This document shows, piece by piece, positions 2,051 to 64,000 of a stretch of DNA of 64,000 bases (position 1 is the first letter of the stretch; each line of letters starts with the position of its first letter). The stretch is taken from the NCBI GenBank assembly GCA_030248215.1, contig JASANG010003711.1, positions 248,001 to 312,000 of the forward strand. Reading direction: 5' to 3'. The notes below the pieces were generated by a model, which was given only the letters and a program-made list of their open reading frames with translations, ran no database searches and was not told where the DNA came from. Both the position numbers and the translations under genes were made by a program. The DNA is from Enoplolaimus lenunculus (taxonomy: Eukaryota).

Positions 2051-2163
2051 ATATCGATTAGTAAGAGTGCTTATATGATGCTGTGACTACGATTTTTGCA
2101 TACTACTGTATATGAATTCAGAGGTTAATTTTTATGCAATATTAAAGAGTTAAGATGCTTAGT

Positions 2164-2540
2164 CAGTGGCGGATCGAGGATCTCAAAATGGGGGGGCCAA
2201 AATTCACAGGTAATAAACTTATTTTTGACCCATACTGTACTGACCCAAATAAGAGGGGGGTCCCCATTTTGAGTCCCAATTAATAGGAGTCCGTATTCCT
2301 AATAAGAATCCGTAAGCGGGTAGAGTCCTTATAAACCCTTGTTTAGAGTCCATAAATGTCTATTATCCCTAATTGTAGCGCATAAATGACTCCAGGGCCA
2401 AGGAACTTTAAAGCGTGCTTATACTATTGTGTATAAAACAGAGAAATAAAAAGCGTAGAACAGCAATTGACACTATATAATTTTTGTCGAGATGCTGTTG
2501 GGGGGCCACGGCCGGGGTGCCCCCCGTGGATCCGCCACTG
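2164..2540. mobile_element. hAT-type MITE family A (TIR CAGTGGCGGATC)
   Basis: TIRs CAGTGGCGGATC / GATCCGCCACTG; 8-bp TSD TGCTTAGT. Confidence 0.9.
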
Positions 2541-5740: not shown

Positions 5741-8700
5741 TTCTTTCTTTTACATGGGATACGGTGAGGCGTTATGCTAAGTCTACTCCTAAGCGTACAC
5801 TTGCTCCATTGCAATCCGCCAAAAAGCAGCCTTTTCTAAGCTATAATGCATGGGAGGTTACTACAAAATATTACTGTCTTAGAAATTTCAGTAGAACAAA
5901 CATCGCAGTGACACGTAATCTATAGCACGTTGTCATTAGCATCACACAATAATATCGACTAGCTATGGTAATTACATATTTGTAATACAATTTTTCGAAA
6001 AATTACAAAAATCAAACTTTTAATAACAACTTAAATGAGACGTTTAGCTGTCCAATTTGTGTATGGCGTCGAAGCGGCTAATTAGAATATTCTATGCGCA
6101 AGTTACCAAATGCCATCTCTGCTTTCCTGCAGAGAACATTCTGCAAAACTTTCAAAAAGCGTGCATCCTCGAGGCTTGAAACATATATTGAAAACACTAC
6201 CGTGTTTCAATGATAATGCGCATCAGACCTGCAGATTCAAATTTAATTCTAAGTCTGCGAATTGAAATTTTGTCTTGGATTTGAACTTTTTGATTTGAAT
6301 CACGTAAAGACAAATATGGTGGGAGGAAATACGGCACTCGTATGGTGGGATAATTATGGCATCCACGACCACGTGGGAACAATTTGGTGGGGAAAAATAC
6401 GAGAGCCACATGTGGTCAATGATACATCGCCGATGACACCTCTGTGGTTGTAGTTTACGACAGTTCGTCGCCCAACATCTTGTAGCTCGATAGTGCAATA
6501 AGCCTAAGCCTAACCGTACACGTAATCATATGGTTAAGCGCCAGCCTAACCATGCGAAGCGGTAGCCCCCCGCTCAAAAATTGTTTGAGAAAAGATTGCA
6601 ATGTCCTAGTTTTAAAATTTTTTACTCCAGTGCTGTTCATGCAATTTTGTTTAGATCGGTAGTGTCAACCAAGGGAACGGACTTTCATATCCGGACCGAC
6701 ACAAAACCCATATTTAGTATTGGTAGTTAACACTAAAACAGCGTATAGTTGTTATTCGGTCGCTTTGCTCGTGAGTTTTTCTTCACTATACGTTACGATT
6801 TTCTCCATTTGAAATTTCTGCATCCGCTACTGATTTGCGGGCAACAAATTGCCAAATCCACGAGATTTCGATTAACAAGTTGTCGGTCGAGCAGCTATCT
6901 GTCGACGATTTGTGGTACCGGTTGTGAAATATTCCACGATTTTTGTTGCGTAATTTTTAGGCTGACATAACAAAGTCGGCGATTGGTCAACTTGATTGTT
7001 TTAAACAGAAACTGGTGTATAAAATTGATTCGGAAATCAGCTACAAAATGGAAGTGATTGCAGGTGTTGCCAACGAGTTGATGCTTATTGCAGGTGAGAA
7101 TGATTGTTAGACATTTTTGTTAGTCTTTTTTCCCACGCAAACATCAAAAGCTTGCTAACAGCTGTTATTATATTTTTGTACAAAAGTTGTCACCCGGTAT
7201 CTCTTAACTGTTTTAGCGTTGTCACGGTTAATTTTTTCCCACGGGTGGTTTAAACCCACCGGTTGGTTTCACACTAACGGTTGATTTCACCACAACGGCT
7301 GGTTTTAACGTAACGGTTGGTTTCACCGTAGCGGTTTGTTTCACCGAAGCGCTTTCCGCTCAAACGTGAAGTTTAGCAGCAACGAAATATTTGTGATCAA
7401 GTATAGATGAAGTGTTTTGTGTGTAGACGTTTTGGCACTTCAGTATTGTCAGCATGGCGTTATTGTTTTCACTCGGCGCCGTCCGTCACCGGGCGGAACC
7501 GCACGCGAGTAAGCCGCATTACATTCTTTACGGCAACTGCCGGCGACGGATCACGCAGGATGACATTAAAATTTGTTAAAAAGTTTCGTCGATACCCTTA
7601 GGATTATGGAGCTACGTACGCCGTTCATCATCGATTTGTTAGCGTTTTAGGGGACATATCGTCGTCATATCTGAAGTGCGGCCGATTGATTCAAAAACAC
7701 GACAATGAACTCAATGATGAATGCTTATTCGAAAGTCATACCACGGCTCCGTCTATTTCGGATTTAATGGCGCAACTGGACGAAATATGCGTTTGGTATA
7801 CAACACGAACCGTTGATGTGTCGTCGAAGCTAACACGAGTGTCACCAGATGCTACAAATGAGCTGAGAAGTTTGCGACTGTTGTGGCGGATACCTTTCAA
7901 ATGGCGACAGAGATTAAAGCAGATGGAAACAGGCTTTGAAGCTGTGAAGCGGTACGCGGAAACATTGTGAATTGACGCTTTTGGATTCTGATAAATTTTA
8001 TCGGTTACAAACGTGTTCAGTGTCACCGTTCTGATGCTGGCGGCAGGACACAAAACGTAACTCATTTTGGTGCAAAATAATTTCTCCAATTCTGAATCTT
8101 TGTCGTTTGGTTGAGTGTTAATGTTTATAAAATTACATAAACGATGAATTTCCAATTGATTGTGGTGTACGCAACACACTGTAATATACTGTCACTGTGA
8201 AATATACACTCGTTGCTAGTACCAAAGACTTAGAGTTGCGCTATACTTTACACTGAGCCGAACGCCGGCGCGCGACGAGTATAGCGCAACCCTAAAGGAT
8301 GATTTAATTCGACTGGGGAAATAATCGTATATGTTATGATGGTGAGAATAATCATGCGGTGACAATAATCGTATACGGCTTCGGATACGGAGGCGAATAT
8401 AGTTCTCTGGGGTAGCAGTTATGGTCAACGTTTTGTGATCGTGTTGATTCCACGATAACAATTTAATCATGTCACCAATATAACGGAAAACCGCTGCAGC
8501 GACTGTTTGGTGGAGTGTGAGGACGCATTCTACTTCCGCACTCGAAAAAATTCGGCTTTCATACAAAGTTTAACTAATGTAAAGAACAGGGACGGAACAG
8601 TATTATAAGCTTATTTTTAAGCCTAAGCCTAAGCCAAGCAAAAAATTAAGCTAAAGCTTAAGCTTATTCTATGCTATTCTCACAGAACAACGTTCCGCCC

Positions 8701-9149
8701 CTGGTCTTTACATGGGCTCAAATTTTCAAAGTTGTGTTTTATTTCTACAAATTTTATAAATTATATGGTTTAGCGATGTTCACCCCCGTGGTTCGGTAGT
8801 CAGAAATACAAAAACGAGGTCTAATTCTCTCTCGCTTCTCTCGCATTATTATTTCGCCATATGATTCCAGCCATAAGCGTTCACGCGGAGGCACTGAGGC
8901 GAGCACTGTGTTTGCAAATATTCTTGACTGTTTTTCACCAACGGTTTCCATATTATATTTTCGTATGAACTTTCTGGAAAAATCGTTCTAGGACAATTTT
9001 TTCCCCGAAAAAACTGTCCCGCTGTCCCAACTGTCGCAACCCAGCTGTCCCTTTCTCCCAGCAGTCCCGTGGTCCCAACTGTCCCGCTGTTTCAACAGTC
9101 CCGTTGTCCCAACTGTTTCGCGGTTCGGATTGTCCCAACTGTCCCGAAT

Positions 9150-9990
9150 GCGAATTAGTTATTAGGTAACTATTCATTTATTGGTTTTGGAGGTTTGTAA
9201 ACAATTTATTCAGATTCCTCGCACTGAAATGATTCGTGAAATATTGCAAAAAACGCTTAATTTAGGCATCAATTATGCTTGTATGCAAATTATCTATTAG
9301 CTAACTACTCAATTATCGGTTTTAGACGTTTGTAAACAATTATTCAGAATCCTCGCACCCAAAAACATTCAGTAAACCCTAATAATTATTGAAATAATTT
9401 AAAAAGTCCTAATTTTGTCTAGTTAATTAAGCTGACATGCAAATTAGCTATTAGCTTACTATTGAGTTATCGGCTTTGGAGGTTTGTACACAATTTATTC
9501 AAATTCCTTGCACCTAAAACTATTCAGTTCTGAAAATATAATGATTTTAACCTTAATAATTAGTGAAGTGTTGTAAAAAGTCGTAATTTAGGCTTATAAA
9601 CTATGCTAATGTGCAAATTATCTGTTACCTAACTACTCAATTTTATCGGTTTTGGAGGTTTGTAAACAGCCTTTGCAGATTTCTCGCACCTAAGAATTCT
9701 TTAATGCTGAAATTAGACTGCTTATAACTGTAATAATTAGTAAAATAATGTAGAAAGTCGTAATTTAGGCTTAATTAATTATGCAAATTAGCCTGTAGCT
9801 AATAAACGGCTTAAAAGTTTAAACCCCAATGCAAGGTTAACACCATAGGATAATTGACATTCAAACAAAAAAAGTTTATCAAAATCTGTTCAGCCGTTCC
9901 TGAGATTCTTGTTAGACGGACGGACGGACATCCACCTTTCGACCCCAGAGTACAAAACATAAAACGCTTCGCGAAACTCCGAGCTTTGCT
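9150..9990 (-). mobile_element. Partial copy of the same HINE-like family with extra internal repeat units
   Basis: Reverse-complement similarity to 42440-43000 (GACGGACGGACGGACATCCACCTTTCGACCCC; repeated GGTTTTGGAGGTTTGTAAACA units). A short fragment is also at about 52800-52925. Confidence 0.75.
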
Positions 9991-11873
9991 GAAAGTTTCA
10001 CTTCTCTCAGTAACAATGCTTCAAAATCATGCAGTTCTACTTAGGGTACTGTTTGAGAAGATGTCTGGTCTATTAAGCATGGGAGAAATTCAACAAAGGA
10101 AAGAACTCCACGTTGACCGTTGTTGGAAAAATTATTGTGAGCGGGGATAAATTATACTCGTCTAATTCGTCCGGGGAGGGAGTGGGGGGTTGTGAAAGAA
10201 TTAAGCGGAAGAAAAAATTTTACGTCAGCGGGGGAAGAAGTAAACTAGTCTAATTCCTTTGGGGTGGCGAGAAAGAATTTTACCGTTACACCGATGGTTT
10301 GACGCAATTCATACTTATTCATCTTTTATTGAAACATCAGTTGGTGGTAATATATGTTAAAATGAAGGAAGTAAATTTTTGTTTGTCTGCGTATTTATGA
10401 AAAATAATACGAGAGCTATAGTATACTGTGTGAAGATTCACACATTGGGTTTCGTCTAATAAGTAGGAACTCAGGTCTGTGTATTGTTTCACCACTAAGA
10501 TAGGTGGAGCTGACGAAAAGAAATTATGGTTTTATACTTGGGTGAGAAATTACTGAACCAATTTCTTGATTATTTTTGTGAGTAAATTTAGTTTTTTCTG
10601 TGTTTATTGTTTGTAAAATTTAAAGCGGTTTGATTTTGGTCTTTTTTAATAGTTATTTAGTTACTGTAAGGATGATTTTTATAATTCACTTATGACGTTG
10701 AAAACATTTCATTTTTACATCCTGCTGGATGCTGTCATATAAGCTTGGTCCTGCGGTGGAGCTTGCGTATGCAAGAAAAGTAGCATAGTGTTCGAATGCT
10801 TCATGTTTTGAGTTTGAGATAATGTATAGGTATACTTAAGATCACGCTATACTTATGATGGCGTTATGCTTTTGATGAAGTCCGTCACCGTACGTCACTG
10901 TACGACAAAGGACGTGAATTTGTACATGGCATCGCATAACAATTCATGAAAACAACATTTTTAACTTGCTAACTTGCGGTGCCGGATTCCACCGCACGAC
11001 AAGCATAGCGCCACCCTTATGTATTACAAAATTATTATATCGCTTACAAAATGTATGTGCTAGCTGTTAACATGTACATGTTACCTTATAGTTGTTCCGT
11101 TTACAAAATAAGCAGCTTCGTTCGTTTGATGGAAAAACCTTCTAAATTGTCTTGTTTTTATTTTTAATCAAAAGAAATTAAAAAATTAATAGTAAATTAA
11201 GTGCGCTAATCTAGCGTCGAGCGCAAAAAATTACGCAATTCAACTCAGTGTGTCGCTTTGGACAGTAATTACATGAAAAAATTATAGATGTCTGAACTGT
11301 TAAAAGTACATTTTTGGTTTCGCAGTAGTCCATGTAAGATCGCAAAAAGTGAAAGTATTCAAGTCTTAGAAAATTAGAAAATTGAAATTTAATTGAAATC
11401 ATCAGGGGATGTTATTAGGAACCAAATCGGCATTGTGTTCAGATATATTAAGACCAGAGCGCGTTCTGAAGATTTGGATAAACATTACTTCTAGCAATGT
11501 AACAACCAAAACGTGTTCCAAAGTTTAAGCTTCCTCAGCGTAATTAACAAAAGTGTAAAAAAACGCTTAAGCCCAGGCAATAAAATAAGTCTAAAATTGA
11601 ACCTATTCGACTGCGGTCTTGTGAAAAAGTGGGGCACCGCTAAAAGTAACATGGCCTGACGTTTGTACGATTAAGCGTAAGTATATTTCAATGTGGTTCT
11701 TTCTTCTTGGAACGTAAAACGACTCATGTATATATAGTTCGAAGGAAGGGTGACATTCGATAGAATCTATGTTGCAGTGGTTTAAATCAGACGGAGACAA
11801 ACCAAATCAACTCAACTTCAGGTGACCAACGAGCTCGATTTGTACAGTTGTAGACACGATCAAAACCATGATA

Positions 11874-12541
11874 ACAGAATTGACACATGAAAACAGAATT
11901 GACACATGAAAACAGAATTGACACATGAAAACAGAATTGACACATGAAAACAGAATTGACACATGAAAACAGAATTGACACATGAAAACAGAATTGACAC
12001 ATGAAAACAGAATTGACACATGAAAACAGAATTGACACATGAAAACAGAATTGACACATGAAAACAGAATTGACACATGAAAACAGAATTGACACATGAA
12101 AACAGAATTGACACATGAAAACAGAATTGACACATGAAAACAGAATTGACACATGAAAACAGAATTGACACATGAAAACAGAATTGACACATGAAAACAG
12201 AATTGACACATGAAAACAGAATTGACACATGAAAACAGAATTGACACATGAAAACAGAATTGACACATGAAAACAGAATTGACACATGAAAACAGAATTG
12301 ACACATGAAAACAGAATTGACACATGAAAACAGAATTGACACATGAAAACAGAATTGACACATGAAAACAGAATTGACACATGAAAACAGAATTGACACA
12401 TGAAAACAGAATTGACACATGAAAACAGAATTGACACATGAAAACAGAATTGACACATGAAAACAGAATTGACACATGAAAACAGAATTGACACATGAAA
12501 ACAGAATTGACACATGAAAACAGAATTGACACAAGAAAACA
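11874..12541. repeat. 19-bp minisatellite, about 35 essentially identical copies
   Basis: Unit GACACATGAAAACAGAATT; produces the three spurious minus-strand repeat ORFs. Confidence 0.97.
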
Positions 12542-14295
12542 GTAACCGGGCGTCAAGAATTTTCAAGAAACAACAGCGGATGCACTCAAAATTTTCAAGA
12601 TTTTTGACGAACTTCATCACTTATTTCAAATCGAACTGTTCAACCATTTTTTCAACTATTACATCTGTTATGAAAAATGAGTGCTTTGTATGTGGTTTAC
12701 AACTGATTTAAGCAGGGTGCAACTAAAATAATGTAATATACTGACTGGAACCGGAACGTGAAAAATCCCGGAGCCTGAATGGGCAAATGAAGGCGTCTGT
12801 TGCTGTAAAATTCGTTTCTAGGCAATAAACTGTTTCAAGTGATATTACGTACAATTCTTTCAAAAATTGTGCATATCAAACCCAGAAAACGAACAAAACC
12901 TATCATCAACCGGCGATAGACGCTACACGAATTTGAAAATTTGGGCACAGATCTGAGTTCACGACAAAAACATTTAGGCGATGAAATGTTGAGAAACTCC
13001 AACGTACCTTTCTGTGTTCAGAGTCTACTGTATTTTAGATATTTTGGTGGTAAATTAATTTGTAACAGTATATTGTCTTTAATTAGACATTCATGACTTC
13101 TGTTGGTAAGTTGGTTTGATTTGGTTATTGAGTCAATTCTATCTAAAGAGCTAACTTCGCTTTTCTGAGAGATTTTATGTTTTTGAGGTTATTATTTGTC
13201 GACACTAACTATCTGATGGACAAGACTCAAAAAATTGGGCGTTTTAATTGCCCCCTGCCAGCCGGCGTTAGTTCAAAAATGGTCGGATTTTGAAAATTTT
13301 TTGCATATATGAGTTTTTCGTGACAAATTTTTTTAATCAAAAAAATTCGTAAATTATATATAATTCACTGAAGCTTGCCGAACTGAGTCGAATGGATTAT
13401 ATTTGCGATGGAATAACTGGTATGGTGCCGTCGTCAATCGTTGACAGCGCGAAATAAACTTTTTTTACCATAACTCGTAAAGCATTAGTTTGAAAGCGAC
13501 AAATTTTTTAGCAGCATTTTAACTCAACTCTGCACGCTGCGTCGAATGATATATAGTTTGACTAACATTTTGAAAAGAATATTTTACCGAAAGAAATCGA
13601 ATTTTTTGACAATTCCAATTTTAATGTGGAATGATTAGGAGAAATCAATTTTACACACAAACTTTCATGAACAAATTTAAATTGTTGCTTATTCATATTT
13701 ATTGCTTTTTTAGCTTGCAAAACGAACTTGCCGTTTGTTGGAACGATGCTGGTAAAACGTGATTTCTACTCAATTGGCGGTCGAAATTTTGAAATAAAAC
13801 CATGTTCTGGTATGTAACGTTGTTCATTTAGGTAATATTTTATAAGTTGGCAACCACGCAATCACATTTTCCTACTTCAGAAAAGTTTGATGTTTTTTAT
13901 TATACATTTGTATTAACGTTACTGTATGAAGATGTAAAAATTATTTCGTTTTATATTTGTTACATATTGTTATGTTTAGTAACTGTTCCAGCATTTTAGA
14001 ACATGGCCATAGTACTGATTAAATTTCAGGCGCGTAACGCTGAATTTAAGCTTATAAAATTTCTATTCTTCGGCTCACTGGGAATATAGTATTGTTTTTG
14101 GTTTCGCCTCATTTCGTACTGGTATCTGAAAATGGTTGCTTTGTGTCACTGTTAATTTACTTGTATGAATGGTATTTACCGTTCAAACCAACTTGTATAG
14201 CCTGTAAATTTGCGATTTTGTGCACTGCACGAATGGTAATGTTTTTTGCGATTATTTCAAGTGTTTGAATTTTAGTTTATATCAAAAGAGTGATA

Positions 14296-17200: not shown

Positions 17201-20200
17201 GCAGTATATTAACAGAGTATATTATTTTCATACATTCACTCGGAACCTCTGCAATTGCGGATCTCAAAACTTGTACAGAAGTAGGACAAATCAAATGCGA
17301 AAATTGTGCTGAATTTCGAACACATTATGTGCCGGTTCGAGTAGGGTTAACAGAAAAATGTGTTACGGTAGGGTTAACGCGAGACAAATTAAAATTTGTC
17401 GCGCGTTAACCTTACCATACGACACATATTGTGGCAGGTTTTAAAATTATTTGTCGCGCGTTAACTTTACCTTACGACACATTTTGTGGCAGGTTTTAAA
17501 ATTATATTGTGAACGGCGCATTATGTAATGTATCACCAACTGGTGAATAGGTGCGTCACACATTTGACAATACGGGCCACATTGCCAGAATAAAAATGTT
17601 TTTAGCTAATGAAGTAAGTGTAAGTACAATGTTGTACCGACTCAAACGAGCACTGATAATGATTAACGGATGTCGCAAAGGACGAAATTTGTTTTAGTCT
17701 ACGTGAACGCATCTTTGCGAAATATTTAATATCACATATGCAAATCTTTCTTCAGGTAAATCCACTACGCAATCACCTTGTGCAATAGATTACAATGAAA
17801 TCAAAGATAACACGAATATTGAGTGTGGGCTGTGTCATAAACCATTTATTGATGAAGATCTCTATCGAACGCATGTTGAACGCAGCGTAAGCATCAAACG
17901 CTTTTGTTTGATTTTGTTATCTTGTAGTCGTCGTAATCGTAACTAACGGTTTTAAGTATCTACTACTGATTTACAGTCACGGACAGAATTAGGCTTCCGC
18001 TTTTTCAAAATTAACATGCAGTGTCGTGCGGTAAATCAGGAGACAACGGCGGAAGCCCCTCCTTATGAGAAATTTTTGTTAAAAAATGCTAAGGTCCCTC
18101 CTACTTTACAAAGTTTTAGTTTTGTGCTGTTTATGCAATTTTGTTTACATCTGTTGTGTCTGCCGTTGGTTGGTTACATCTAAAAAATTTCGCCTGCGGC
18201 GCTATTTTTGTGTCCGCTGCAATACAAACTAGTCAGCATGGTTGCAGTATTTGCAACCGACACCAACATATTTCCGCAAAAATGTCTCAACGCAACTAGT
18301 AATGTTATTGAACCATAAAACAATGTATAAACTGAAACATTCAATGTTTTAGAACTACAAAGATTTAGTATTATTTATATTGCATACGTTTATACAATCA
18401 GGTGGAACAGTAAATACGTATGTGGGGCGTTCTAGCTATAATTATATAGATATTAAGGACAGAAAAAGGCGAATTCTATCACTACCTAAATCTCTGTTTC
18501 CACTAAATGGTTAATATGATATATTATCTTTACGTATTCCGAATGCAAACCAACATAAACTAAAATTCTGTCTTCGCATTTTCATGCATTTTATAAAAAA
18601 TGCGTAAGACTTTCGCTTTACTTCAATTCGAGGTTTCCTTCTTAATTCAGCCTTTGGTCGTTTCGGGGACACAATCGCTCGCAAACGCGATTTGAACTTC
18701 TCGCGGTTATTTTTCGCTATGGTTAGTACAATCTGGATATTTTTGCAAATTAGCGAATAAACCAGTTAAATCGTAAAGTGAATCGCTTGAACCCTTCCAT
18801 CATTACAAATGTGCAAAAATACTGTGTATGTGCGCCTCGATAAGGTTGGATATTTTTACAGCATATCAGTGACATATTGGTGTTTCGTTGCGGAGTAGTG
18901 ACGTGCGACGAAAGTTTCATACTCTTTGATAAGTTCTCGAAACATCTGGCTCAGCATATCTCAAATGACGCAAGAAACGATCGTTGCCCAAAAATCTGTG
19001 ACGGTTGTGGAAACGGTGTTAGGCCGGATTCGTCGAACACCAGTGGACTTCGACAAGTCGACGTGGCAACATCGATAAACGCAAGTTTTGTCAAGGATGG
19101 ACGCGTGCGAGATGCATCGGTTGTGGTCGAACGGCTGACGCAGCGGTACGTTTGTAATCAATTATTGTTGTAATTTAATTCAATTTCAAAATTTGGTCGT
19201 TATATCGTTATTTTGTTGAATTTGCTAAATCAGTGTTATAAATTGCGCAAATTGCTACTCAGGGCATTTTGCTAAACTAATATTAGAAAGCAATTTTGTG
19301 ATACTTCATACATGCTTGGTGCTTTTCTCACGAAACGGAATACTTTTTAAATGTTTTTTGTTGCCAACACTCAGGGTGCAACCGGAATTCCGGTTCCGGT
19401 TCCGGCATTTTTTCACCTTCCGGTTCCGGTTCCGGTAAATTTTTACCGGATTTAAAAATTCCGGTGTTATAATTTGGCCGTTTTCTTAACTTTGCTAATT
19501 TTTAAGAATCTCTTTTGAAAGCCACTTGTACTCCGAATATAAGCCATTGATGGTGGATTTCACTTCAGTCGACGACGAAAATCTAAAATACAACAAATAA
19601 AATAAATACCTATGTTCGACTAAGGTTGTTTCACAAATAATAGAGCAAAAAATACGATTAAAATGAAATTTTTGGTGATATGCATTTTTCACTTTCCGGT
19701 TCCGGTTGCGGTAAAATTTTCAAATTCCGGTTCCGGTTCCGGTAAATTGTAATTCCGGTTGCACCCTGCCAACACTGTTTTCCTGGCATGCTTATTTCGC
19801 TCGCAGGTTACAACGCAGACCAGAAAAGGTATGATAGTAGCAGGTTGTTTTGCTTGCAACGAAATGCCTCATGTACCATTTTGCGTTACGACAATGACAT
19901 GTTATTATTTTATTATTATTTTTAAGCATAATTGACGAATATGAGACATCTCGTATGAAAACGGATGAAACTGGTATAGCAGGCAGTAGCCTGAATTTCC
20001 GTAAGTGCGAAGTTTTTGGTGAAAGAAAGCGTACTAAATCTACACCGAAGAATACTGAAAAATATTGTCAGCAAAAATCAAGAAAACAAGGCTTGAGAAC
20101 GAGTCGAAAAGCGAAACCTAGCCAACGTCGGCCTTGTCTCAAAGATTTAAATCTGGACAGCATTGTTGAAGCCGCTGGCATAGACTCAGTTACCATGAGA

Positions 20201-21615: not shown

Positions 21616-23245
21616 GAGGTTACGGTTTACAATTATGTTTGTATTTTGCAATGTAGTGATACCATGTCGGCGGGTGGTTTTGTGGCAGGGGTAGATCGAC
21701 AAGTGTAAAGTATAAAAATTTTGAATGGAGAAATATACAATTTTGCTAACGTTTTTTCATTAAGCTTTTTTGGGGACCTCGAGGCAACTCATCTTCAGGG
21801 TTCTTTTGGGTCGTTGCAGGATATCGTATATAAAAAATATCCGATGCCCATCACTACCTAACGTGGTAGTTTAAAGATGTTATTTAATGCGTTTTAATAT
21901 GAAAACTCACCATTACCGGATGCAGGATAATCCGTTATTTGTAAACAGCGATAATCAATGAAACGCACAGTACTGCTTGCGTTGGTTATACATCAGTTTT
22001 GATCAAAATAGACGGTACAAAAACAGTCACTACGCACACCAACGCGTGAGAAAATAAATTTTGGCACATAATACCACTAAAACAATGTCGCTTCCGTTAA
22101 TAGGAAAACATGAACAACTAGTGCGTGGGAGTGAAACGCGCGGAACATCCTAATTTCAATTTATTCAAAAATGAAAGTTTTCAAAAACCATTGCGGGGTA
22201 TGGCCCCCTGCCCCCGCCCCTGGCTACGCCCTTGTTCCACAACGACGGGTAATATATCTTGCCATATCTACATAAAAAAATTACTGACTGGGAAGCTCAC
22301 TGTGAATCCGCACCTTGATTCCAGCGTTATACAAGCCGTAACCATTCTATACAAATGACTTTTTAATTTGGTATTTAGAAACTGGGTACGTATTATCAGC
22401 TTACCGGCCCTTGGACCGATATCTTTCGCGTATGCCCATAACCCGTATAGGAAACTGGTGATAAGGTTGGCTTCAATGATTCTGTATAAATGTTGTCATC
22501 ATGGGCCTCTTGGAATTGCATCCCCCCGACGTGGCAGCGTCACACTGGCCTGCATTGTGAGCCTCCTGTCGTGGTATTCTTATTAATTTATTGATATGAC
22601 CAAAATTCCCATTGTTTTTGTAAACTTCATAACGTTCTATTTGTATCAGTTTGCTGGTCAAAAGTCTTGCTGTGTTTAATAGTATTTCGTGATTTGTGTA
22701 TGCTTTATGCGCAGTGCATTATTTTTTTGTGATTGTGTTTATTTGCAAATTACACTTGATATCCGGGTACAAGCTTCATGGGTGGCAAATTTGTTAACAC
22801 GTCAAAAGCAGAAACGTATATCTATCACGTGTAGTGGCTGCAGAGTCAGTATTAAGATGTTTGGTCTTACTTGCCAAACGGTGCCGCCTCAAAAATGATT
22901 GCAAAAAAATTTATTCATGTTCGCTATCTGCCTTTGTGCATAAACGTGAAACACTTTAAACTTTCCTCAACAAATGTTTCAATTTCTCTCCGTGTTCTCA
23001 TTTTTGCCACAAAACTGTTAACCTTACCTTAATGCTCGAACAACAGACACACACAACAAAGATGTGTGTAACAATTTAATTGCACGTAAATTGTATGTGT
23101 TGTGCTTGTGTATGTGAAATTTTTTCGGGATTAGTGTTAACCCTACCTTAACGGCAGTCACAACGTGTTAGGGAAGGGTTAACAGATAAAGTGTCAAAGG
23201 TAGGGTTAACGAGTGGCCAATTTCAAATTTGCCACTCGTTAACCC

Positions 23246-23860
23246 TGTAAGCATGTGAGACATGCTTGTCCGTTATGTGCACATGCAATATAGTGCATTG
23301 CACTGTATGTATGCTGGTGGCAGCATACGGTCGACAAATATAGTCGACGAAAATGGTAGTTGGACAGGCGGGCTACGTGGCGCAGTGGTAGAGTGCTCGC
23401 TTAAGGATCCATAGGCTAAGAGTTCATTCCCCGCTCTAGCCCGCTTTTCCAGCTGCTTAGTTGAAAGGTCTGAAGTCCCGGTTCCTACCTTGACTGACAT
23501 GGGGGCCACGCCGTGAGCGCAATGGCAAACTGCCGCGCTATGAGCACGGTATCCAGTCGAAAATAGGATGGACGGTCAAGGGACGACCTTGTTGAGAATA
23601 AGGGCATGTAAGCATGTGAGACATGCTTGTCCGTTATGTGCACATGCAATATAGTGCATTGCACTGTATGTATGCTGGTGGCAGCATACGGTCGACAAAT
23701 ATAGTCGACGAAAATGGTAGTTGGACAGGCGGGCTACGTGGCGCAGTGGTAGAGTGCTCGCTTAAGGATCCATAGGCTAAGAGTTCATTCCCCGCTCTAG
23801 CCCGCTTTTCCAGCTGCTTAGTTGAAAGGTCTGAAGTCCCGGTTCCTACCTTGACTGACA
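23246..23860 (+). mobile_element. Non-autonomous miniature LTR retrotransposon (TRIM) with a tRNA-like sequence in each LTR
   Basis: Two apparently identical 254-bp direct repeats (23246-23499, 23607-23860), each TGT...ACA. The 107-bp internal region starts TGGGGGCCACG (PBS-like) and ends in purine-rich GAGAATAAGGGCA. 5-bp TSD AACCC on both sides. Confidence 0.92.
23368..23444 (+). ncRNA. tRNA-like Pol III cassette in the 5' LTR (second copy at 23729-23805)
   Basis: Closing stem GCGGGCTA/TAGCCCGC, A-box TGGCGCAGTGG, B-box-like GAGTTCATTCC, followed directly by TTTT. No convincing anticodon stem. Confidence 0.7.
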
Positions 23861-26800
23861 AACCCTACCCTAACACATTGTCTGTGCTCAAGCAACATTG
23901 TTTTATTGTGAACGGCACATAAATACAGAACAAAATCATAGTTTGGATTTGCAGTGTTCCCGTTGCACGCAAGTCACACATTACAAATTATTGACTGTGA
24001 CCGTCGTTTTGCCCGTTGATTTCTAACTTTGAGGGCCATTTTGAATGCTTTTTAATTGAAGAAAAACGTTCTCGAAAAGAGATTATGAACGATTTTGGAC
24101 AATACTGTGAAAATCCTTTTCAAAATTTTCAATTTTAACCGTATTCTCATGACCTAATTTTGCTACAGTTCCGGCTCCGACATAATTTCTTGATCTCTGG
24201 TTCACGGTTTTTCACCTCCGGTTGCACAATGCTTAAAAATAGTGTTCCCTGAACAGTTTAAACGGGTGCTATGACATTACGAATTATTAATATGTATATA
24301 CAATATCATTCATATCCATGCAAAATATGATTTATAGGTAAACATGTGTTTATAACCTTCATCTACCGTGTGAATTCTGCTATGATTGTTGTCATTCTAG
24401 TTTTCTAAATACATGGACAAGATATCTGTATTCTCACTTAAGTATTTACTCACTTATATATTATACTGAAGTAATTACTTAAGTTGCCGGCTTAAGTAAA
24501 TACTTGAATTTTCGAGGAAAACAAAATAAATGTCAAATGTCAGTCATTGTCGTAACAAGAGAGTAATAGTTTTGTTTTATATTACGGAGGCACCGTGAGT
24601 CTACAATTTCAATTACGCCAAAATGGGTATAGATGAACGGTTAATTTGTAATATATCAAGTTTAGTTAACGACGTAAGTATTTACTTAAGTGCGCTTTTA
24701 AAAACGACAAAATAGTTAAGTAACTATTTAACGCGTACATAAGTACTAGATCGTATTTAAGTAGGGTTTCAGAAACCCAGCCATTATCACCGTAAACATT
24801 ATGAGCAAGATTTGAAACTAAACAGTTGTAAAAATTGAGGAAATTTTATGAAAGTGGTTGCTGAACATTACTGTAAAACAATTTATATCCGTTAAAGCAG
24901 ACCAAAAGGTTACATTTATTATTTGTTGACTAAAAAGGTTAAACTGAAATACGAAGATGCGTATCGAAAGACATAGCTATCGTTTTCGATACACATTTGT
25001 GAAAAAATACCATATGTTGCCAGGGATAGTATGCTATGGAGAAAGAACATATATCTAAACTTTGGGTAGTTATTTCGATAACATGTCCTTTCAGTGCTAT
25101 TAAATTTTAGGTGCCGTAACGTGTTCGAGTAGAATTAAACGTTCCCGAAATAAAGTTTTGATTACGACTCTGCTTCTGAAACTGTGGCAGGAAGCCAAAA
25201 CAGAAGTTAAGACCTGTTCGACGGAATGCGCACGTCGCGATATCAAAACCCGATTAAAACCCGGAAAGGATTAGACTAAATAAAGTACTTATACTGAAAG
25301 TGAAAACATTTTTAGACCAGCCTCAAAGCTCAAATGATTTTCTAAAATTTTAAATTTTTAATACTTACCCCTCTAAAAGTGAAGGTGTGCAAAATTAAGT
25401 CTAGGTGTGCTGAATGCAGGACTGGTTATAACGGCGAATCAACGCCAATTATACTGGACATGAATTTCGAGGAGTTTTAAACAGGTGTTTGGAATTATTG
25501 TTCCACTGTAAGGTGTGCAAATTAATGTGCAAAATTAAGTTTAAGTGTGCAAGAGCACACTTTTTTTGCACAAAAAAACCCTGCCTCTAAAACTGAGTTT
25601 ATCGTGGATGACTTGCAATTTATGACACAATTAACCAGTATAATACAGCATGCGCTTGAAAATTTATTGCAGTGTAAGCTGTGTATAGTGTAAGCTATGC
25701 GTGTGCACCAATGTGGCTCGCGTAATGAGGCTAAGGAAAATATTTAAAAATGAGTTGGTTCAGGCATAACGCATTAAGGTTGATTTGTATTCTACCATTA
25801 TAAATGAATGTCTAAAATGTTGCAAGCGTAATGTTCGGCACCTTGTGATGTTTGTTATGCTTCGTCCACAATTATTTGCGTGCGCGCTGCGGGATTTTAG
25901 ATCGATCGTAGACGTCAGCGCTCAACGGTGTCTTTCTAATTTCAATATCCCACTTACATAAAACTACTATTTTTTATTTCGAAGCCGTAGATGGTTGCTC
26001 TTCGTAACTCAAGGCATTGGCTACAATTGCAGGTAGTTCAAAGCGAGGGGCTTAGTCGGTTGCCGTCATTCATAAATATAGCAGTTGTAGATGCTGAAAT
26101 GTTGCGCCACAGCGTGTACGCAATATATTTTAAATATGCTGCATAAAATGCCTGCCTACAGTGCTTACGAACTATAAACCTGCGGCCGTATTCTCAAATG
26201 TGTGTGGCATCGCAGTTGGTGATAGGTCTTGTAACTTTCGAACCAGCCAATGGTGAAGTATAAAATATTGCAGCAGTTCGTTAGTTTGAAAACCAACTGG
26301 TTATGAGTTCTATATACATTTTAAAATATGGGACCTAAGCCCAGAGTGCAGAGCGGAACTGAGTGATACCGGAATCGGAACAGGAAATTTATACTGGAAT
26401 CGGAACTGTAAATTGTCGGATACCTGTTCCAGAGTGCAAGTTAATCATGCTTCTATTATAATTTTCATGTCATATATTGTAAATGTGAGCTGAGAACTAA
26501 TATAAGCATCAGTTATCATTGTCAACATAAAACTGCAAACAAATTTCTCGCATAATTGCAATAATACAGGTAAGAAACAATGAAGAATTACGATACTGGA
26601 TGCATTTTGATCGGAATTGTAATCGAAATCAGAATTCTGGTTGCGCTTTGCATACCTAATCTTAAACCTAAGTCAAACCATATGCTCTGAACATAAGCTT
26701 AAAGTATTAAAGCCTAAACCTAAAACGTCATACTCTCTAAAGTCCCCCAGTGTTCTGTTTGCCAGTGGGCAGGTCCTGTAAACTCTGAACACTGTATTTG

Positions 26801-33400: not shown

Positions 33401-36400
33401 TTGCAAAAAATATGGCTAAATTTTATACCAGTAGTATCACATTCATTATTTCCCTCCTTGTGCGACGAAACAATGTTTTCTCTTTGTTGAAAGCCGTTTT
33501 ACTATCTCTGTGTGATGAAACAAAGTGTTCCCTTAGATCAAGGGCGGCAGAAAGTCGCCTTGATTCGGATTTTCACCTGCACCAACCAGTGGCGGATTCA
33601 TGGGGGGGCCACCCCGGCCGTGGCCCCCCAACAGCATCTCGACAAAAATTATATAGAGTGTCAATTGCTGTTCTACGAAATAAATTGAAATCCATAACCG
33701 CTAATGCTAAAACATTTTCCGACAATAGCAGGCAGTTCCAACTCGTTCAAAACAGAAACGTATATTGCTGAAGCTGACTGGATTTTGCTTTTTCAAAACT
33801 GAATTGGCTTCCGAATCCGAGCCTTTAAATAATTGAACGAACGTAAGGAAGTCAATTTTATGGCAATAGTTCGTGGTTTGTGTGTGGGTCAAAAATAGTT
33901 TTATTACCTGTGAAATTTTGGCCCCCCCATTTTGAGATCCTGGATCCGCCACTGGCACCAACGTAATTGCTTTCGCTGACGCTGCCGACTTAACAAATCG
34001 ATCGACGTGTCAACTTACATATTTATAAATTATTTTTCTATTTAAAGTCTGAAAATGACTAAGCCGAGGTTGATTTAAGCCGCGCGTTACTAAATTTTAA
34101 AAAATTGAGTTTATACTGAGATAACATTTTACAGTTAAAAATTTGGTCCTATTATAGAACAGGGCCGGAGCAGTAGTATAAGCATTTTCCTCAGCCTAAG
34201 TCTAAGCCTAAGTCTAGCGTATGGATGAACATATTCTTAAGCCTGAACCTAAGCAAAAAATAGTCTAAAGCTTAAACTGACTCTATTCTTGCCCCTCCGA
34301 AAAACGATCCGGCCATGTTCTATACATGGGCCAAAATTTGTAATATTTTCGAATTGAACTTTTGTCAACTCCATTAACAAGATACGGTGAAAGAGATATA
34401 AAGTAAACGCATCAATTTCAGAAGCCGATTGGCCGCTGGTATTGATGTTGGGATATATTTACGGTGGAATGGTTGGAAATCAAGTTGTACTAATGGTCCA
34501 TGATGCTAATCACAACCAAGCGTTTGGCGTCAATCATGTGCTCCTTGTGAGTAGTTTTTGAAATTTAATTATAGCATTTAAGTTTGCTTTACGTATCGAA
34601 ATATTGTCCAATGCTTAGAACAGGGTCGTTACAGTAGTATAAGCATATTGCAAAGGCTAAGCCTAAGCATAAGCGTACGAATGAGCTTAAACCTACTTAA
34701 GCGTAAGGAAAAAATTAGCCTAAAGCTTAAGCATACTCTGTTGCAGTCTCACACAGAAAAACTTTCCGCCCCTGATGTTTACATGGACCGAAACGTTTAA
34801 GCTTTTTAACTGAACGATCTGTGGTTGATTAGTGGCCCAATTCAATATAGTACTGCACAAATTATTACGTTGGCTTTTAGTATTGCAAATTTCTTTGGTG
34901 TTGTTATTCACGGCAAACTTAAGGTGAAGATTTGTTCGTTGATGAAATGCCTCTGTATGTATTCGGCATAATTTTCGCTCCTTGCACACTTATCTCAACT
35001 ATGCTGGATGGTTAATGCGTAGACAAAGGCTAAGACAATAGATTATTCCTTGACATAAGTAGCATTGTTCTAAACCAAAACGTAGGTAAATGTGGGGGGA
35101 AGTGTACACAAGAGCTCAATATTCGTTAGACTTGATTTTTAACGTTTACACAGATGCAAAAAATAATGGCTGAAGACTGTACTGCATGGACAGAAATGGT
35201 TTGTTTATGACTCTAGTATACGACAGCATCCTTTGCCATCATGAGAAATAGTGTTGCGCATTGGGATTACGATAAATTATGAAAAGAGTCTATATTGACA
35301 TATTTCAGAACCGCTTGCATGAAATGTTTATTAATATGCCGTTTTTGACGCCATTCGCAACAAACAATGCTCTTACACACCATTTTCATCATATGTATTT
35401 AGGTATGACATGGATAGATAATTTTGACAATTTAACAAAATACGATAAAATTGGTCTGGTTTTGTGCCAATCTCGGCTGTTGTATATTTGCCCCATATTT
35501 ATACAATTAAGCTTTTTATGGTTAGGCTTAAGTTTAGGCAAGGGGTTCCGTAAACGTAAATTTATACTTAAAAATACTTACTAATTGAAAAGCTTTTCAT
35601 TAACCCTTTCTCACATGAATATGTTCAGTTTAATATGAGATGTATATAATTTCAAGGCAAGATGCGATCCCCAGTCTCTCGGATGGGTGGCGTTTACGAT
35701 GACCGCAACTTTAAGTGCCGGCACTTAAAACATAAAATTCCGGTTTAATGTTTTGCATTTCAATTGGTCACATTGCGGTCTTAAAGCAAACAATTTATCA
35801 TTCGTTTGTTGTAAATAAACTTATTGTAAGTTTCGAATTTAACTAAAGTTTAGTTATAAATTTAAATATTTTAGGTCAAAAACACATGGACCCGGACGTA
35901 CCCTTAGAGTTTGAAGGCCGGTTGTTCAACACACCACTAACAAAGTTACTTTGGTACGCCTTACTGCCGTGGTTGAACGTTGTTCGCATCGTCGATAAAG
36001 TCAAACACCAATCGAAAGTTACCAAGCGGGTATGTTTAAAGATTACGAATCTACGACAATTTGTCGCCCGACAGCTTACCGCCCAACAATGTCGTAAAGC
36101 CTATGAGCAAAATCTAAGCATAACCCTAAGCGTAATGCTAAGCCTAAGCGTAAGCATAATGCTTTCCGACGAATTGCGGAGTTGATGAAATTTCGAATTA
36201 CAAGTTGTCGGTCGGCGAGTTATCGGTCGACGAATTCTCCTGATACCGATATTATAGTGAGCACGGGCACCGGAAGCATTTGAGGAGTAATGGTTTCTAG
36301 CAGATTTAGAAAACATATTACATTCAGTTACTTATACCAAAGCAATGAGTTCTTGACTCGCTCGATATCTGAAAAAATTGTGACGTATGGAGAATGGAGA

Positions 36401-39400
36401 CAAGTTCCTTCCCACACTTTGTCCGATCATCCGGCGGAACCTGGACCAAATACCCCACCTGTTCTAATTGCTTTGGTGCCGCACTTGATAAATGTAACTA
36501 AAAAATTATGCAGAAAAGTGTGTGCTATCTAGCAACGATTTTAGATAAAAAACGACAATGTGCAGCATACGACCGGAGCTGAAAAATAACTTATATCAAT
36601 TAGTGCTGCCGAATATTGAAAAATTTTGCGGAGACCGGAAATTGCTGAATAATGGTACTGTATCTGCTATAGTCAATGAACAATAAATGCTGTTCTAAAA
36701 ACGTTTAACGTTTTTGCACAATTGTTTTTAAAACATTACCAGTTTGTCGAAACCTAAAACAGATACGCTCGAGATGTAAGCCCCTTGAAATTTGTAGGAG
36801 TGCGTTAAAACTGGGCACATAACCTTTGCGATATATGAAATCATGATTAGATCGCTGTCCGGCGTATGGCTGTTCTCGGACCGAGTTGTACATTGTTTCA
36901 GGCATTAATTGACCTTGAATACATGAATATTGCAGTTTGTGCAACATTTTTCATGTACATTTGTTCGTATTGGACATTGAAATCTGTTGTGTTTTTTATG
37001 TTGATTCCGTACTTTGGCACCAGTCCGTTTCATCCGTCTTCATATCACTATATATCAGATCATTATCAGTTTGATACAAGAACGGTATGTTAGAAGACCC
37101 TACTATGCTAGCTGCGTTTTGTTATGACCCGGATAAGAGACTGACTGATATTTATTTGGCCTCTCCAGATGGTATCCATTGATATTCAGTTACGGTCTGT
37201 TATTTATTTTTAACTCGTCCTTCGCCCTTCGGTATTGATATATTTGGTATTGCAATTATCCGTTGAATTAAACGTTTGTCTTGTATCAAAACCTTGAGCG
37301 ATAATGCAAGATTATACTTAAGAATGTACTTTCGAAACTTAAGTACGCTTTGAGGTTTCGAACTCAAATGTATCTGGTGTTGGAGTCATTTATGCATTAC
37401 AGTTTGGGGTTTTTAACATTTATGGACCATAATTAGGGTGTAGGGGCTCTATTCGCTTGAGGACTTTTGTTAGGAATGCGGGCTCCTATTGATTGGGACT
37501 CAAAATAGGGACGCCGTTCTTATTACCGCTTCTCATTCGGGTCATTACAGTACGCGAAATAATACACAATGCCTTTTGTTCATAAATGATTAAGCTTTTG
37601 CAAGCTCTTTTATGGGTCATCCAAGTTAGAATGCACGCACATTTGTAAAAAAATGTCCCTCCCTTTTGGGTGCCCACGTTGTCCATACCCACTCTCTTTA
37701 TACAGTGTCTGAGATATCAATATGTCATTGTCTGAACCTATAGACAATGAATATGCTCTAGGCATAAATATTTACTTGTCTTGACATCATTATCGGGAAC
37801 TGTCATTGTCCATAGTCCCTCGGAAGGGACTCAATTTTTTGCGTTAAATGATGCGTGCGTAATATGTGTGCACAGCGTGTGTTTTTAAATGTGTGCTCGT
37901 GCACTAAGGTAATGTCCTGACATCCTGCAGACAGCATGTATTTATCCAGAGTCCCTTCCGACAGAGTCTAAACAATTAACACTATCTAAGTACAGCTATG
38001 AAACTGTACCTTGCCTCCAGCTAGGATGTGCATTTTGATGTTGTTCCAAATGGAGTGGGTGGAACATTTATTACATCGGCGCGTGCATTTTAACGTGGAT
38101 GACCCATTATAGTCGAGCGCTAAAAGCGCATTTCATCATTAAGGCTGGAGTACAGGTCTCAGCTTGAAATGGATCTCATATGGAATGAAACATACATATT
38201 CATGTCAAAGCTTACACATCAGCCGACTAATCAACAGAACAGATGCAACATAAACGAGTTTTTTAAAATATAAATAATACAAATCGAGGCCTATGTAAAG
38301 AACATGGCCCGAACAGTAGTATATTAAGCAGATTACTAAGCCTAATCCTAAGCCTTTGCGTTAGGATGAGCCTTTTCCTAAGCATAAGTATAAGCCTAAG
38401 CCTAAGCAAAAAAGTTCGTCTAAAGCTTAAACTGACTCTATTACAGCACCGCCGGAAAACGATCCGACCCTGTTCTATACATCGGCCCAAACTGTTACAG
38501 CAACCCAATGAGGTCATTTGATCAAGATATTCAACGTTTAAATGTTGCACAGTCGGCTGCCCATGTTTCTTTATGGGGCATCTGGGTTTCTGGTGGGTCC
38601 ATAAAAAGTAGGTTTAGATTCTAGATTATATTTTTTTGCTATGCTTAGGCTTATTAAGACATTTTTGCAACGCTTACGCTTAGGCTTAGGCTTATACGCT
38701 TTAATCTACTGTTTCGCCCCTTAAAAGTAACATTGGCCGTCTCGTACGTGAGTAACTCACTCAATTATACCTCGTCGGCAACCCTAAATCGTCACGTTTC
38801 AGGAGCTTTATTCGTACTACGGATTGTTGAATTACATTACGTTCAATATTGGTTATCATGTCGAACATCATGATTTGCCGCAAGTGCCATGTGGATATTT
38901 ACCTTTGGTAAGTTTATTAGATCTCATTTTATTTGTGACAGGAGCATTTAGCTTGTGTTGATGTTTTTAAAAACATTGAGCTTATTTGGACATTCAAAGA
39001 GCCTTCAAAATATGATATATATTTTCAACATCAGGGCCGTATTTTGAAAAAATCTTCGTGATGATAAGCTGCTTTTATATGCTATTCAGCTTCGTGAACT
39101 TCAGCGCAGTCTGATTTGTATTAATATTTAGGTACGAAAAACGGCGCCTGAATTCTACACAAATATCGGAATACATAAGTCAGCGTTGGGTTGCGTTTGG
39201 AATTTTGTGTTCAACAGTTCAATGTCTCCATACTGCCGCGTGTTGCGAACAATGACTCGCTTACCACTGCCTAAGTTAAAACATGCATTGCCGAAGCTAT
39301 ATTTCGAAGTAAACGGGTTGTTAGCGAATGCAAACTTGGGCCCTCGACTTATAGCTAAGAGCGCCCGGTCAGGTTCAATAGATCAAACACGGAGTGACAA

Positions 39401-49694: not shown

Positions 49695-50102
49695 TGTAAG
49701 CATGTGAAACATGCTTGTCCGTTATGTGCACATGCAATATAATGCAGTGCACTGTATGTATGCTAGGTGTCAGCAGATGGTCGACACATATAGTCGACGA
49801 ATAATGCAGTTGGAGGCGGGCTGCGTAGCGTAATGGTAGAGTATGTGCTTAAGATCCCCGCTCCGGAGGTGCGCTTTTGCAGTTGCTTAGTAGAAATTGT
49901 GATTTCCCAGTTCCAACCTAGACTGACATGGGGGCTACGCCATGAGCGCAATGGTAAGTTGCCGCGCTTTGAACACGTTATCCAAAAGGTAGATTTTTCG
50001 CTTAAGGATTCGTATGCTGAGAGTTCGATCCCCGCTTAGAGGACCGCTTTTCCAGCTGCTTAGTTCAAAGGTCTAAAGTCCCGGTTCCTACCCAAACTGA
50101 CA
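49695..50102 (+). mobile_element. Older, internally deleted copy of the same tRNA-bearing TRIM
   Basis: Starts TGTAAGCATGTGAAACATGCTTGTCCG. LTR1 ends GACTGACA at 49928, then PBS TGGGGGCTACGCC. The truncated 3' LTR has B-box GAGTTCGATCC and ends CTGACA at 50102. Flanks are ATATA/ATACA (near-TSD). Confidence 0.85.
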
Positions 50103-63015: not shown

Positions 63016-64000
63016 TCTGCTTTAACAGTGGTGCTAGCTAATATATGCGTTGGTTTCGTTTTGTGAGCATAGCCAATCAGCGATCACCATGTCTCAGTAC
63101 CGAGTCGCGTACCACTGCGTCACGCAGCCTTGTGATCCGTCCAACTTAGATTGGAGAGGGAACGCAATATGGTGCTGTGTAATTCGCGTAGAACTATTGG
63201 ACTAGCCGGGTATTTTATCTGGGCCTCCTGCTTGTAAGGCAGACGTTTGAATCGTGACCTTTGTAGAACTGTTAGTAGTTTTTAATTGAGTTGCGGGAAA
63301 AACAGGCGTGTGGGCTGCGGGTGGCAACAAGTCGCAAGCTAAGATGTTTGACGGACGCTCTACCACTAACACATGTAGCCTGAGTCTCAAAGTGATTTTA
63401 TCGTCAATTATGTATGTCAGTAAGTGTGCTGCTGGCATACAGGCATTCTAGTACCAAGCATTTTATATTGCTTGTGCATTAGGGCAAATAATATACGCAA
63501 GTGTATTGTACACTTGCATCGCCCACGTTTAATCAGTGGCCTGTTCTTTTTTACTGTCTATCTAGTTTTGGATTGAATCCCATATACTGTTTTGTTAAAT
63601 TAATTTCTAAGTTCTGTTGCTAAAATGAGTTATTAGATGGTGGTGTTGTCTATATCTGTAAATATGCGCTGATGACTGTAATGTTCCGGAGTGCTGCATT
63701 GCATCAATTAAGGTGAGCATTGAGCATGAAAACAAGGGCCTGCGGTTGGGAACTTGAGAAACTTTCATTTCAAATCCAACATAAATGTGTGTTCAAGGTT
63801 TAAACAACCTCTGATAACTAAGTTGATCTGATGGGCACTGTTTTTGGGCATTGTAGTTCCTTTGATTCTTTTGCGAAAACTGTAACTTTTTGAAATCTTT
63901 CGCTTGTCTTTGCTAAAACTTTTCTAGTTATATATTTGATATATAATTGGTTTGTGATGAACCAATGTAGTCTGTAATTATAGTAGGCACAAGTGAATAC

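Follow-up and report, generated by a model that had tools for sequence, protein, structure and literature searches.

The 615-bp segment at positions 23246-23860 of the window, by which we mean the whole 64,000-nucleotide stretch of DNA analyzed here, is best explained, with a probability of about 0.68, as a recent insertion of a miniature LTR retrotransposon (TRIM) that codes for no protein and belongs to a high-copy family. In this interpretation each LTR carries a tRNA-like head, the element is likely transcribed by RNA polymerase III (Pol III), and the reverse transcriptase (RT) and integrase would be those of a helper element with a 5-base stagger. Elements of this kind were already described in 2024, and what is new is the 5-bp duplication in an animal TRIM with a tRNA-derived head, along with the probable nematode host.

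The element is composed of a core enclosed by two LTRs (254 + 107 + 254 bp; start-to-start offset, 361), which are 100% identical. When the flanks were compared, all five letters matched at k = 5 (AACCC), as compared to three of four at k = 4 and three of six at k = 6. The layout proposed in an earlier, sequence-only reading (AACCC, 254-bp LTR, 107-bp core, identical LTR, AACCC) is therefore borne out by the repeat and flank comparisons. Its assignment to the TRIMs likewise holds, given the TG..CA repeats, the length below 1 kb, the PBS and the LTR ends found throughout the family. The longest ATG-started frame in the element has 75 codons and the longest stop-free stretch 100 codons, revealing that it has no coding capacity. 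The coordinates of all features are collected in Table 1.

The insertion lies in a dispersed palindromic repeat of GTTAACC / GGTTAAC units (23010-23245 together with 23861-23885), of which a second copy is located at 17335-17500. Removal of the element had been claimed to restore the motif of this host sequence. The resulting empty-site reading, GTTAACCCTACC, is backed by the inverted pairs of the palindromic arm at 23197-23223, and also by the second copy of the host repeat, which reads GTTAACCTTACC near 17335-17420 without a gap. A host-repeat hairpin of ~22 bp is located directly to the left of the TRIM, and the host repeat is multi-copy in the sequencing runs described below.

Table 1. Features of the studied element, its relatives and other sequences in the window
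Feature	Position	Strand	Basis or remarks
Left target-site duplication, AACCC	23241..23245	+	flank comparison
5' LTR, 254 bp, TGT...ACA	23246..23499	+	direct repeat, 100%; family loose ends at 23246 and 23499
Predicted U3, four tandem hairpins	23246..23367	+	fold
tRNA-like head (predicted R), 8-bp closing stem	23368..23444	+	fold; tRNA positions 1-72 at 23371-23442
A box, TGGCGCAGTGG	23378..23388	+	motif search
B box, GTTCATTCC, non-consensus in studied copy; family majority GTTCGA	23422..23430	+	motif search, run depth
TTTT, predicted Pol III terminator	23445..23448	+	motif search
Predicted U5, 51 bp	23449..23499	+	family contigs: common to subfamilies with differing heads
Non-coding core, 107 bp, several predicted hairpins	23500..23606	+	fold z = -1.23, not significant
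Primer-binding site (PBS), TGGGGGCC, adjoins LTR end	23500..23507	+	tRNA-Pro 3' end, 7 nt complementary
Weak polypurine tract, GAGAATAAGGG, then CA, then 3' LTR	23594..23604	+	10/11 purines
3' LTR, same letters as 5' LTR; A box 23739, B box 23783, T4 23806-23809	23607..23860	+	
Right target-site duplication, AACCC	23861..23865	+	flank comparison; S1 contigs align from 23861 onward, not to the LTR end before it
Copy 2, decayed: 5' LTR with 21-bp deletion, PBS TGGGGGCT, core and 3' U3 deleted, 3' LTR end	49695..50102	+	
Old family relic: core end and most of one LTR	63281..63583	-	nhmmer E = 6.4e-10
Protein phosphatase inhibitor-2 (IPP-2) gene, at least 5 exons	45620-48600	-	Pfam
Fatty-acid or sphingolipid desaturase exons	35847-36185, 38788-38958	+	Pfam; 35847 by eye
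THAP4-like heme-binding protein exons	55853-56107, 58341-58649	+	Pfam; 58341 by eye
Weak C1orf109-like match	7602-7970	+	Pfam
19-bp minisatellite, 35.6 units, 99% identity	11867-12542		
Long inverted-repeat element, ~1 kb, twice, 92-95%	4808-5740 and 60767-61785		

The wider family was followed in three public DNA sequencing runs of one organism (X1, X2 and X3), which come from two samples of one study (X1 and X3 from sample S1, X2 from sample S2); they may derive from the same source as the window and lack independence at the level of the study. Upon alignment to 22700-23606 at 85% likeness, 8806, 3701 and 5501 run contigs fitted (X1, X2 and X3, respectively). Loose contig ends were found before 23246 (151, 94 and 159 contigs), part of them being core-to-LTR junctions, and behind 23499 (224, 131 and 219 contigs). 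The agreement among the loose letters was as low as 0.35-0.37, so that the flanks are unrelated between copies. In addition, many run contigs link the end of the core back to 23246. The summed depth rises from ~15 (X1) and 35-48 (X3) in the unique flank to 70,000-450,000 within the element; this sum is not a copy number, and its ratio to the single-copy depth ranges from ~150 to 14,000 according to the overlap correction. The studied element is one copy of a large family with sharp ends at the same LTR boundaries, and the pile of junction contigs at 23246 and 23499 bears out the premise that other copies share the TG..CA termini.

Two further copies lie in the window itself. The LTR parts of the decayed copy 2 are identical at 72 of 93 positions, and its flanks (ATATA / ATACA) match at four of five letters at k = 5 and at none of four at k = 4. 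Its B box reads GTTCGATCC at 50023, and Rfam reported no tRNA match on this copy. Since both a decayed copy and a relic are present in the same window, the family is old as well as recently mobile. The exact LTR-start pattern had 0 matches in metagenome and viral contigs. The exact LTR-PBS junction was found at 6 metagenome and 5 genome contig loci, all 11 of which match over just 19-28 nt and were taken as chance.

These observations also bear on the simplest alternative, in which the segment arose by local tandem duplication of a SINE or by misassembly. The perfect identity of the repeats would be expected in that case, and among the contigs listed none spans the whole stretch. However, the PBS adjoins the first repeat and a target duplication is present, while the 107-bp core occurs family-wide, joined back to the LTR start with sharp ends at TG and CA, and two further copies accompany the element in the window. 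The family junction contigs largely refute this explanation, to which we assign next to no probability.

The age of the insertion was assessed from the right flank, with the runs aligned to 23838-24500. In X1, a 696-nt contig with a depth of 15.6 matches 23861-24496 with 0 differences, and in X3 a 903-nt contig with a depth of 34.8 matches 23861-24500, also with 0 differences; neither aligns to the LTR end at 23838-23860. In the orientation of the records, these flank contigs, both at single-copy depth, extend upstream by another 59 letters, a stretch that on an empty allele would end at 23182. In the bin 23165-23195 of X1, a depth of 7.0 is expected under an empty allele and 6.7 was seen. The X2 depth over the flank is 2-4, which is too shallow to judge the empty site. 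We infer, firmly, that sample S1 contains an empty allele. Given that the right flank appears to continue into non-LTR sequence in S1, the insertion is likely young and still polymorphic at this site. The earlier assertion of a very recent insertion, which had relied on the identical LTRs, is thus strengthened by the inferred empty allele. One X2 contig fits up to 23872, that is, the LTR end plus ~12 flank letters, and then diverges; it perhaps represents another insertion into a like motif.

Within the element, the PBS and the purine tract are of unequal quality. In the family majority, as in copy 2, the PBS reads TGGGGGCT (T at 23507; 83-87% of family depth). It pairs perfectly with the 3'-terminal 8 nt of the tRNA-Pro shown in Fig. 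S2 of PMC10886601, from which the host tRNA-Pro may differ. The purine tract that had been noted before the 3' LTR is short and weak (GAGAATAAGGG, then CA). It is also variable among copies, the core/LTR junction variants of the family mostly ending in GGGCA or GGCA. Self-priming by the head was considered and rejected, as the longest perfect complement to the PBS 18-mer inside the element is just 6 nt.

Each LTR had been predicted to contain a tRNA-like Pol III unit of 77 nt, and the 8-bp closing stem, the A box, a relaxed B box and the TTTT are all found within or directly behind 23368-23444. The combination of an A box, a relaxed B box and a T4 at the spacing of a tRNA, a pattern composed after sight of the studied sequence, was absent from all 20,000 dinucleotide-shuffled LTRs and from all 60 shuffled windows. 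The real window contains it in both LTRs and in one more unit near 50390. The TTTT at 23445 and its twin at 23806 are the only plus-strand runs of at least three T in the element, while 0.86 T4 runs are expected per shuffle. The A box carries a G where the Helenus motif TRGCY has Y.

The resemblance to a tRNA as such is only partial. In a 111-nt query, Rfam RF00005 aligns end to end (model 1-71 of 71) at 23371-23442, but the score of 11.4 bits is far under the gathering score of 29 (E 7.4 over 4227 families), and ARAGORN with default settings found no tRNA in the whole window. In the Rfam alignment, the acceptor-like stem is preserved, as is most of the D stem; little remains intact of the anticodon and T stems. 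Rfam did not report the tRNA model on a 1.1-kb stretch, and ARAGORN at a 70% threshold returned solely a mis-registered call on the studied head. A functional tRNA is ruled out by the default ARAGORN result, the mis-registered call and the sub-threshold Rfam score. The head is, judging from its sequence, a set of promoter boxes without a working cloverleaf. A 5S origin of the Cassandra or Ajax type, with which the LTR had been compared, does not apply, for 5S rRNA had no Rfam match at E up to 10 in the studied element, LTRs included. Rfam matches to mir-128 and mir-3912 were dismissed as generic hairpins under their gathering scores.

The B box, at least, appears to be conserved among copies, its consensus form being the family majority. 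Among the 21 family differences listed inside the element, from a table with 18 further rows, none falls in the A box, GTTC or T4. G at 23426 accounts for 98.1-99.5% of the family depth and A at 23427 for 99.5-99.8%, giving a canonical GTTCGA B box (AGTTCGATCC). The studied copy has AGTTCATTCC instead, which fails the strict consensus. This GTTCAT form sits in both of its LTRs and makes up at most 0.2-0.5% of the family depth at 23427. The studied copy represents a minor subfamily in which the B box is of a rare type. Some run contigs match the first 25 nt of the LTR and again from 23439-23441 onward, and differ in between. One loose end (before 23440, 68 contigs, X3) shows a second head type, in which GTTCGA is kept and the neighboring letters differ. 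In X2, the depth of the core exceeds that of the 5' part of the LTR, which is not so in X1 and X3 and is consistent with other subfamily proportions in S2.

Other tRNA-like units occur in the window. On the minus strand at 50300-50400, a unit of A box, B box and T4 shares the letters behind its T run with the studied LTR and has no Rfam tRNA match. Its upstream part is found inverted at ~49014-49260, and the two arms enclose TRIM copy 2. A 117-bp unit at 62911-63027 (minus strand; TGTTA...TAACA) matches the Rfam tRNA model with 32 bits, over the gathering score. It is flanked by ACCAC / ACCTC (four of five letters at k = 5) and occurs just once in the window. It could represent either a tRNA pseudogene or the solo LTR of another tRNA-bearing TRIM family, unrelated to the studied one and with a TSD of 5 bp. 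An A-box-like fragment of a tRNA head was seen by eye at 63090-63135 (minus strand), between this unit and the family relic, and tRNA-derived repeats cluster, again by eye, around 62911-63583.

The region before the head is strongly structured in silico. The segment 23246-23360 folds into four hairpins with z = -4.24, none of 200 shuffles being equally stable. Among the family differences listed, the three within 23246-23348 (23298, 23316 and 23337) are all in predicted loops, while the U3 counterpart of copy 2 folds less well (z = -1.46). One may speculate that the four-hairpin U3 is a packaging signal. In a second prediction, for 23355-23457, the head is enclosed by a stem of ~20 bp in which the TTTT is paired to U3 sequence (z = -3.35; 1 of 200 shuffles as stable). 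In an RNA running from the head to the second T4, this stem is possible solely at the 3' LTR, and the pairing of the last 13 nt of U3 with the T4 region could favor termination there. It is a weak lead, because the matching region of copy 2 lacks the ~20-bp stem and folds otherwise (z = +0.66).

The same stem invites a different interpretation of the head. Retrozymes, which are likewise non-autonomous LTR elements, have a structured RNA, the hammerhead ribozyme, in their LTRs. By analogy, the head and its long flanking stem might be a processing signal of the RNase P or RNase Z type that frees unit-length RNA. We consider this very unlikely: while the enclosing stem speaks for it, the anticodon and T stems are largely broken, copy 2 does not preserve the fold, and neither the ribozyme families of Rfam nor the hammerhead core CTGANGA (both strands) was found in the studied element, which in this respect differs from retrozymes.

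In the transposition cycle that we propose for a Pol III-transcribed TRIM, TFIIIC would recognize both boxes of the 5' LTR, with transcription beginning near 23368-23371. The bulk of the RNAs would end at the first TTTT (~80 nt), while a minority would read through to the second TTTT (23806-23809), yielding an RNA of 442 nt (23368-23809). This RNA would bear the head at both ends as R, with the 51-nt U5 behind the first and ~120 nt of U3 before the second. The host tRNA-Pro would prime at the 8-nt PBS and the purine tract would prime the second strand. A helper would supply Gag, RT, RNase H and integrase, the last of which would place the TG..CA product into a target site and thereby duplicate 5 bp.

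Pol III use and read-through are predictions from the sequence. In favor of Pol III, the T runs lie only directly behind the heads, and GTTCGA is kept in the family and in the second head type. One report describes that human Pol III reads through canonical terminators in cells, and also that T4 terminates it very efficiently in vitro (PMC3141230); given the latter, read-through may be rare. The rare GTTCAT B box of the young studied copy counts against a simple Pol III model. Either a donor with a poor B box was nonetheless transcribed, or early strand transfer brought in the variant from the 3' LTR of the donor.

Alternatively, the head could be a passenger, left by an old SINE insertion in a TRIM that Pol II transcribes from the hairpin-rich U3 or from outside promoters. 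The youngest copy seen does have a non-consensus B box, the T4 in the 5' LTR would shorten most Pol III transcripts, and the U3 is strongly structured. However, GTTCGA is kept in 98-99% of the family depth and in a second head type, the T runs lie solely behind the heads, and no TATA box or poly(A) signal (AATAAA) occurs anywhere in the 615-bp element. We therefore regard a passenger head as unlikely and retain transcription by Pol III as the preferred reading.

The length of the target duplication bears on which helpers come into question. At one site, a 5-bp duplication beginning with A is indistinguishable from a 4-bp duplication plus an extra A, and both window copies begin with A. The element could accordingly be an ordinary animal Helenus with a 4-bp duplication (ACCC), an extra A behind the LTR and the usual Gypsy helper. 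The same letters would result, as the duplicated word starts with A at both 23861 and 50103; the majority letter behind 23499 is likewise A, and a TSD of 4 bp is given for each of the 113 animal Helenus families in which it was determined. On the other hand, no letters separate the CA end of the 5' LTR from the PBS, leaving an extra A without a template. The reference letter at 23500 is T, so that the first loose letter is never T, and in an AT-rich genome A would then be expected most often. Furthermore, the five-mer between the majority flanks is symmetric, whereas the four-mer TGAT is not. Together with the flanks of copy 2, which fit at k = 5 and not at k = 4, these points favor a duplication of 5 bp, the length first proposed, and make the 4-bp version quite improbable.

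The majority letters are ATGAT, ATGAT and AGGCT to the left of the element (X2, X3 and X1, respectively) and ATGAT, ATGCA and ATCAA to its right, both at a low agreement of ~0.35 in an AT-rich genome. The studied site, AACCC, fits this motif only partly. In Drosophila, the target motifs of LTR elements are described as palindromes, with 5 bp and the motif AWTAWNWTAWT for Pao and 4 bp for Gypsy (PMC3276498); just the central five letters of the Pao motif (the AWNWT core) fit the flanks of the TRIM family. BEL/Pao (Tas) elements are reported in almost all nematode genomes examined in one survey (PMC3118150).

Because the duplication is 5 bp and not the 4 bp of animal Helenus, the helper is likely a different element. 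Some Gypsy lineages also give 5-bp sites, and Copia is scarce in nematodes. We tentatively name BEL/Pao as the helper, at somewhat under even odds, followed closely by a Gypsy lineage with 5-bp sites, and then by Copia as an improbable candidate. The Pfam scan, which covered 164 reading-frame segments (the window has 303 segments of at least 55 aa), revealed no retrotransposon domains.

Helenus is defined as the TRIMs with tRNA-derived sequence in their LTRs (Kojima 2024, Biology 13:119, PMC10886601). The earlier use of this name, with 4-bp TSDs in animals, is confirmed by that definition and by Table S1, in which we counted 115 animal families, 113 with a 4-bp TSD and 2 n.d.; none of them pairs an animal host with 5 bp, in accordance with the suggestion that the combination is new. 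The fungal and plant Helenus families, and the nemertean Ajax, have a 5-bp TSD (PMC10886601). The studied element thus falls under the Helenus definition and appears to depart from the 4-bp TSD of the animal group. Nematodes are absent from the main text, Table 1 and Table S1 of that article. Literature searches on Helenus, TRIMp3 and nematode TRIMs, confined to open-access articles, revealed no such nematode element.

Like Helenus, the studied element is shorter than 1 kb, with 615 bp lying within the published range of 311-1263 bp. Each LTR contains tRNA-derived sequence with the two boxes but without a functional cloverleaf, and the element has a PBS, a weak candidate purine tract and TG..CA ends. 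Head and PBS lack complementarity, as in Helenus, and the predicted priming by tRNA-Pro is as in Helenus-1_TeGr. The published Helenus LTRs compared here have a like order of U3, tRNA-like part, often a T run, and a short U5 (PMC10886601). The differences are the 5-bp TSD in an animal, probably nematode, host, a weaker purine tract ending in GGGCA, and a majority B box of AGTTCGA as compared to GGTTC in Helenus. Six short motifs of the element, compared with the whole supplement of PMC10886601, gave scattered matches and the tRNA-Pro PBS of Helenus-1_TeGr and Gypsy-13_CGi. Outside the boxes and the PBS, this comparison by short motifs revealed no likeness in sequence.

Other known systems match less closely. 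Ajax, a nemertean TRIMp3, shares with the studied element the animal host, part of a Pol III promoter inside the LTR and the TSD of 5 bp (PMC10886601), but it has 5S rRNA boxes and tRNA-Leu priming, in contrast to the tRNA-type boxes and tRNA-Pro PBS found here. The plant TRIM Cassandra is described as having an internal Pol III promoter and terminator in each LTR, and as the only TRIMp3 with validated Pol III transcripts (PMC10886601, PMC7215508). It is 5S-derived and, according to the same sources, has a terminal redundancy of 18 bp, whereas that predicted for the studied element, with its tRNA head, is ~80 nt. For tRNA-headed TRIMs (Helenus), Pol III transcription was proposed, not validated (PMC10886601). 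The tRNA-derived SINEs (SINE2) resemble the element in the tRNA-like head, the A and B boxes and the decayed stems; unlike them, the element has LTRs, a PBS and a candidate purine tract, and lacks a tail and a TSD of variable length. As in the SINE/LTR hybrid that the sequence-only reading proposed, a SINE insertion is the putative origin of the head. A tRNA-like sequence is also carried by Cer7.

As for the host, the window contains 30 TTAGGC dimers (at most 1 mismatch), as compared to 0.23 expected, and 0 TTAGGG dimers; the repeats are interstitial, and a dispersed repeat family in the window bears TTAGGC runs. Among the nematodes whose telomere motif is determined, 64 of 67 are reported to have TTAGGC (PMC10760449). 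These repeats alone lead us to consider the host quite probably a nematode. The window further contains intron-rich eukaryotic genes (Pfam IPP-2, fatty-acid desaturase and THAP4-like exons), and TRIM copy 2 lies ~1.1 kb upstream of the first ATG of IPP-2. Protein comparisons pointed to no taxon: homologue searches with three single exons had no hits, while in the Atlas one exon had no usable hit and another matched generic IPP-2 clusters.

Taken further, the family might be an independent, still mobile nematode TRIM lineage that depends on BEL/Pao and swaps U3 and heads on a U5-core module, the pairing of U3 with TTTT perhaps strengthening the second terminator. We consider this extended scenario doubtful as a whole; if it is true, TRIMp3 would have BEL/Pao as a third superfamily of helpers, in addition to Gypsy and Copia. 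The 5-bp site breaks the published 4-bp pattern of animal Helenus and points to another helper, and the studied family would add a host phylum to Helenus. As a young, high-copy and apparently polymorphic family, it predicts a transcription start near 23368-23371 and RNAs of ~80 and ~440 nt with terminal U runs. In addition, families of this kind lead to inflated numbers of predicted tRNA genes and are a source of insertion markers.
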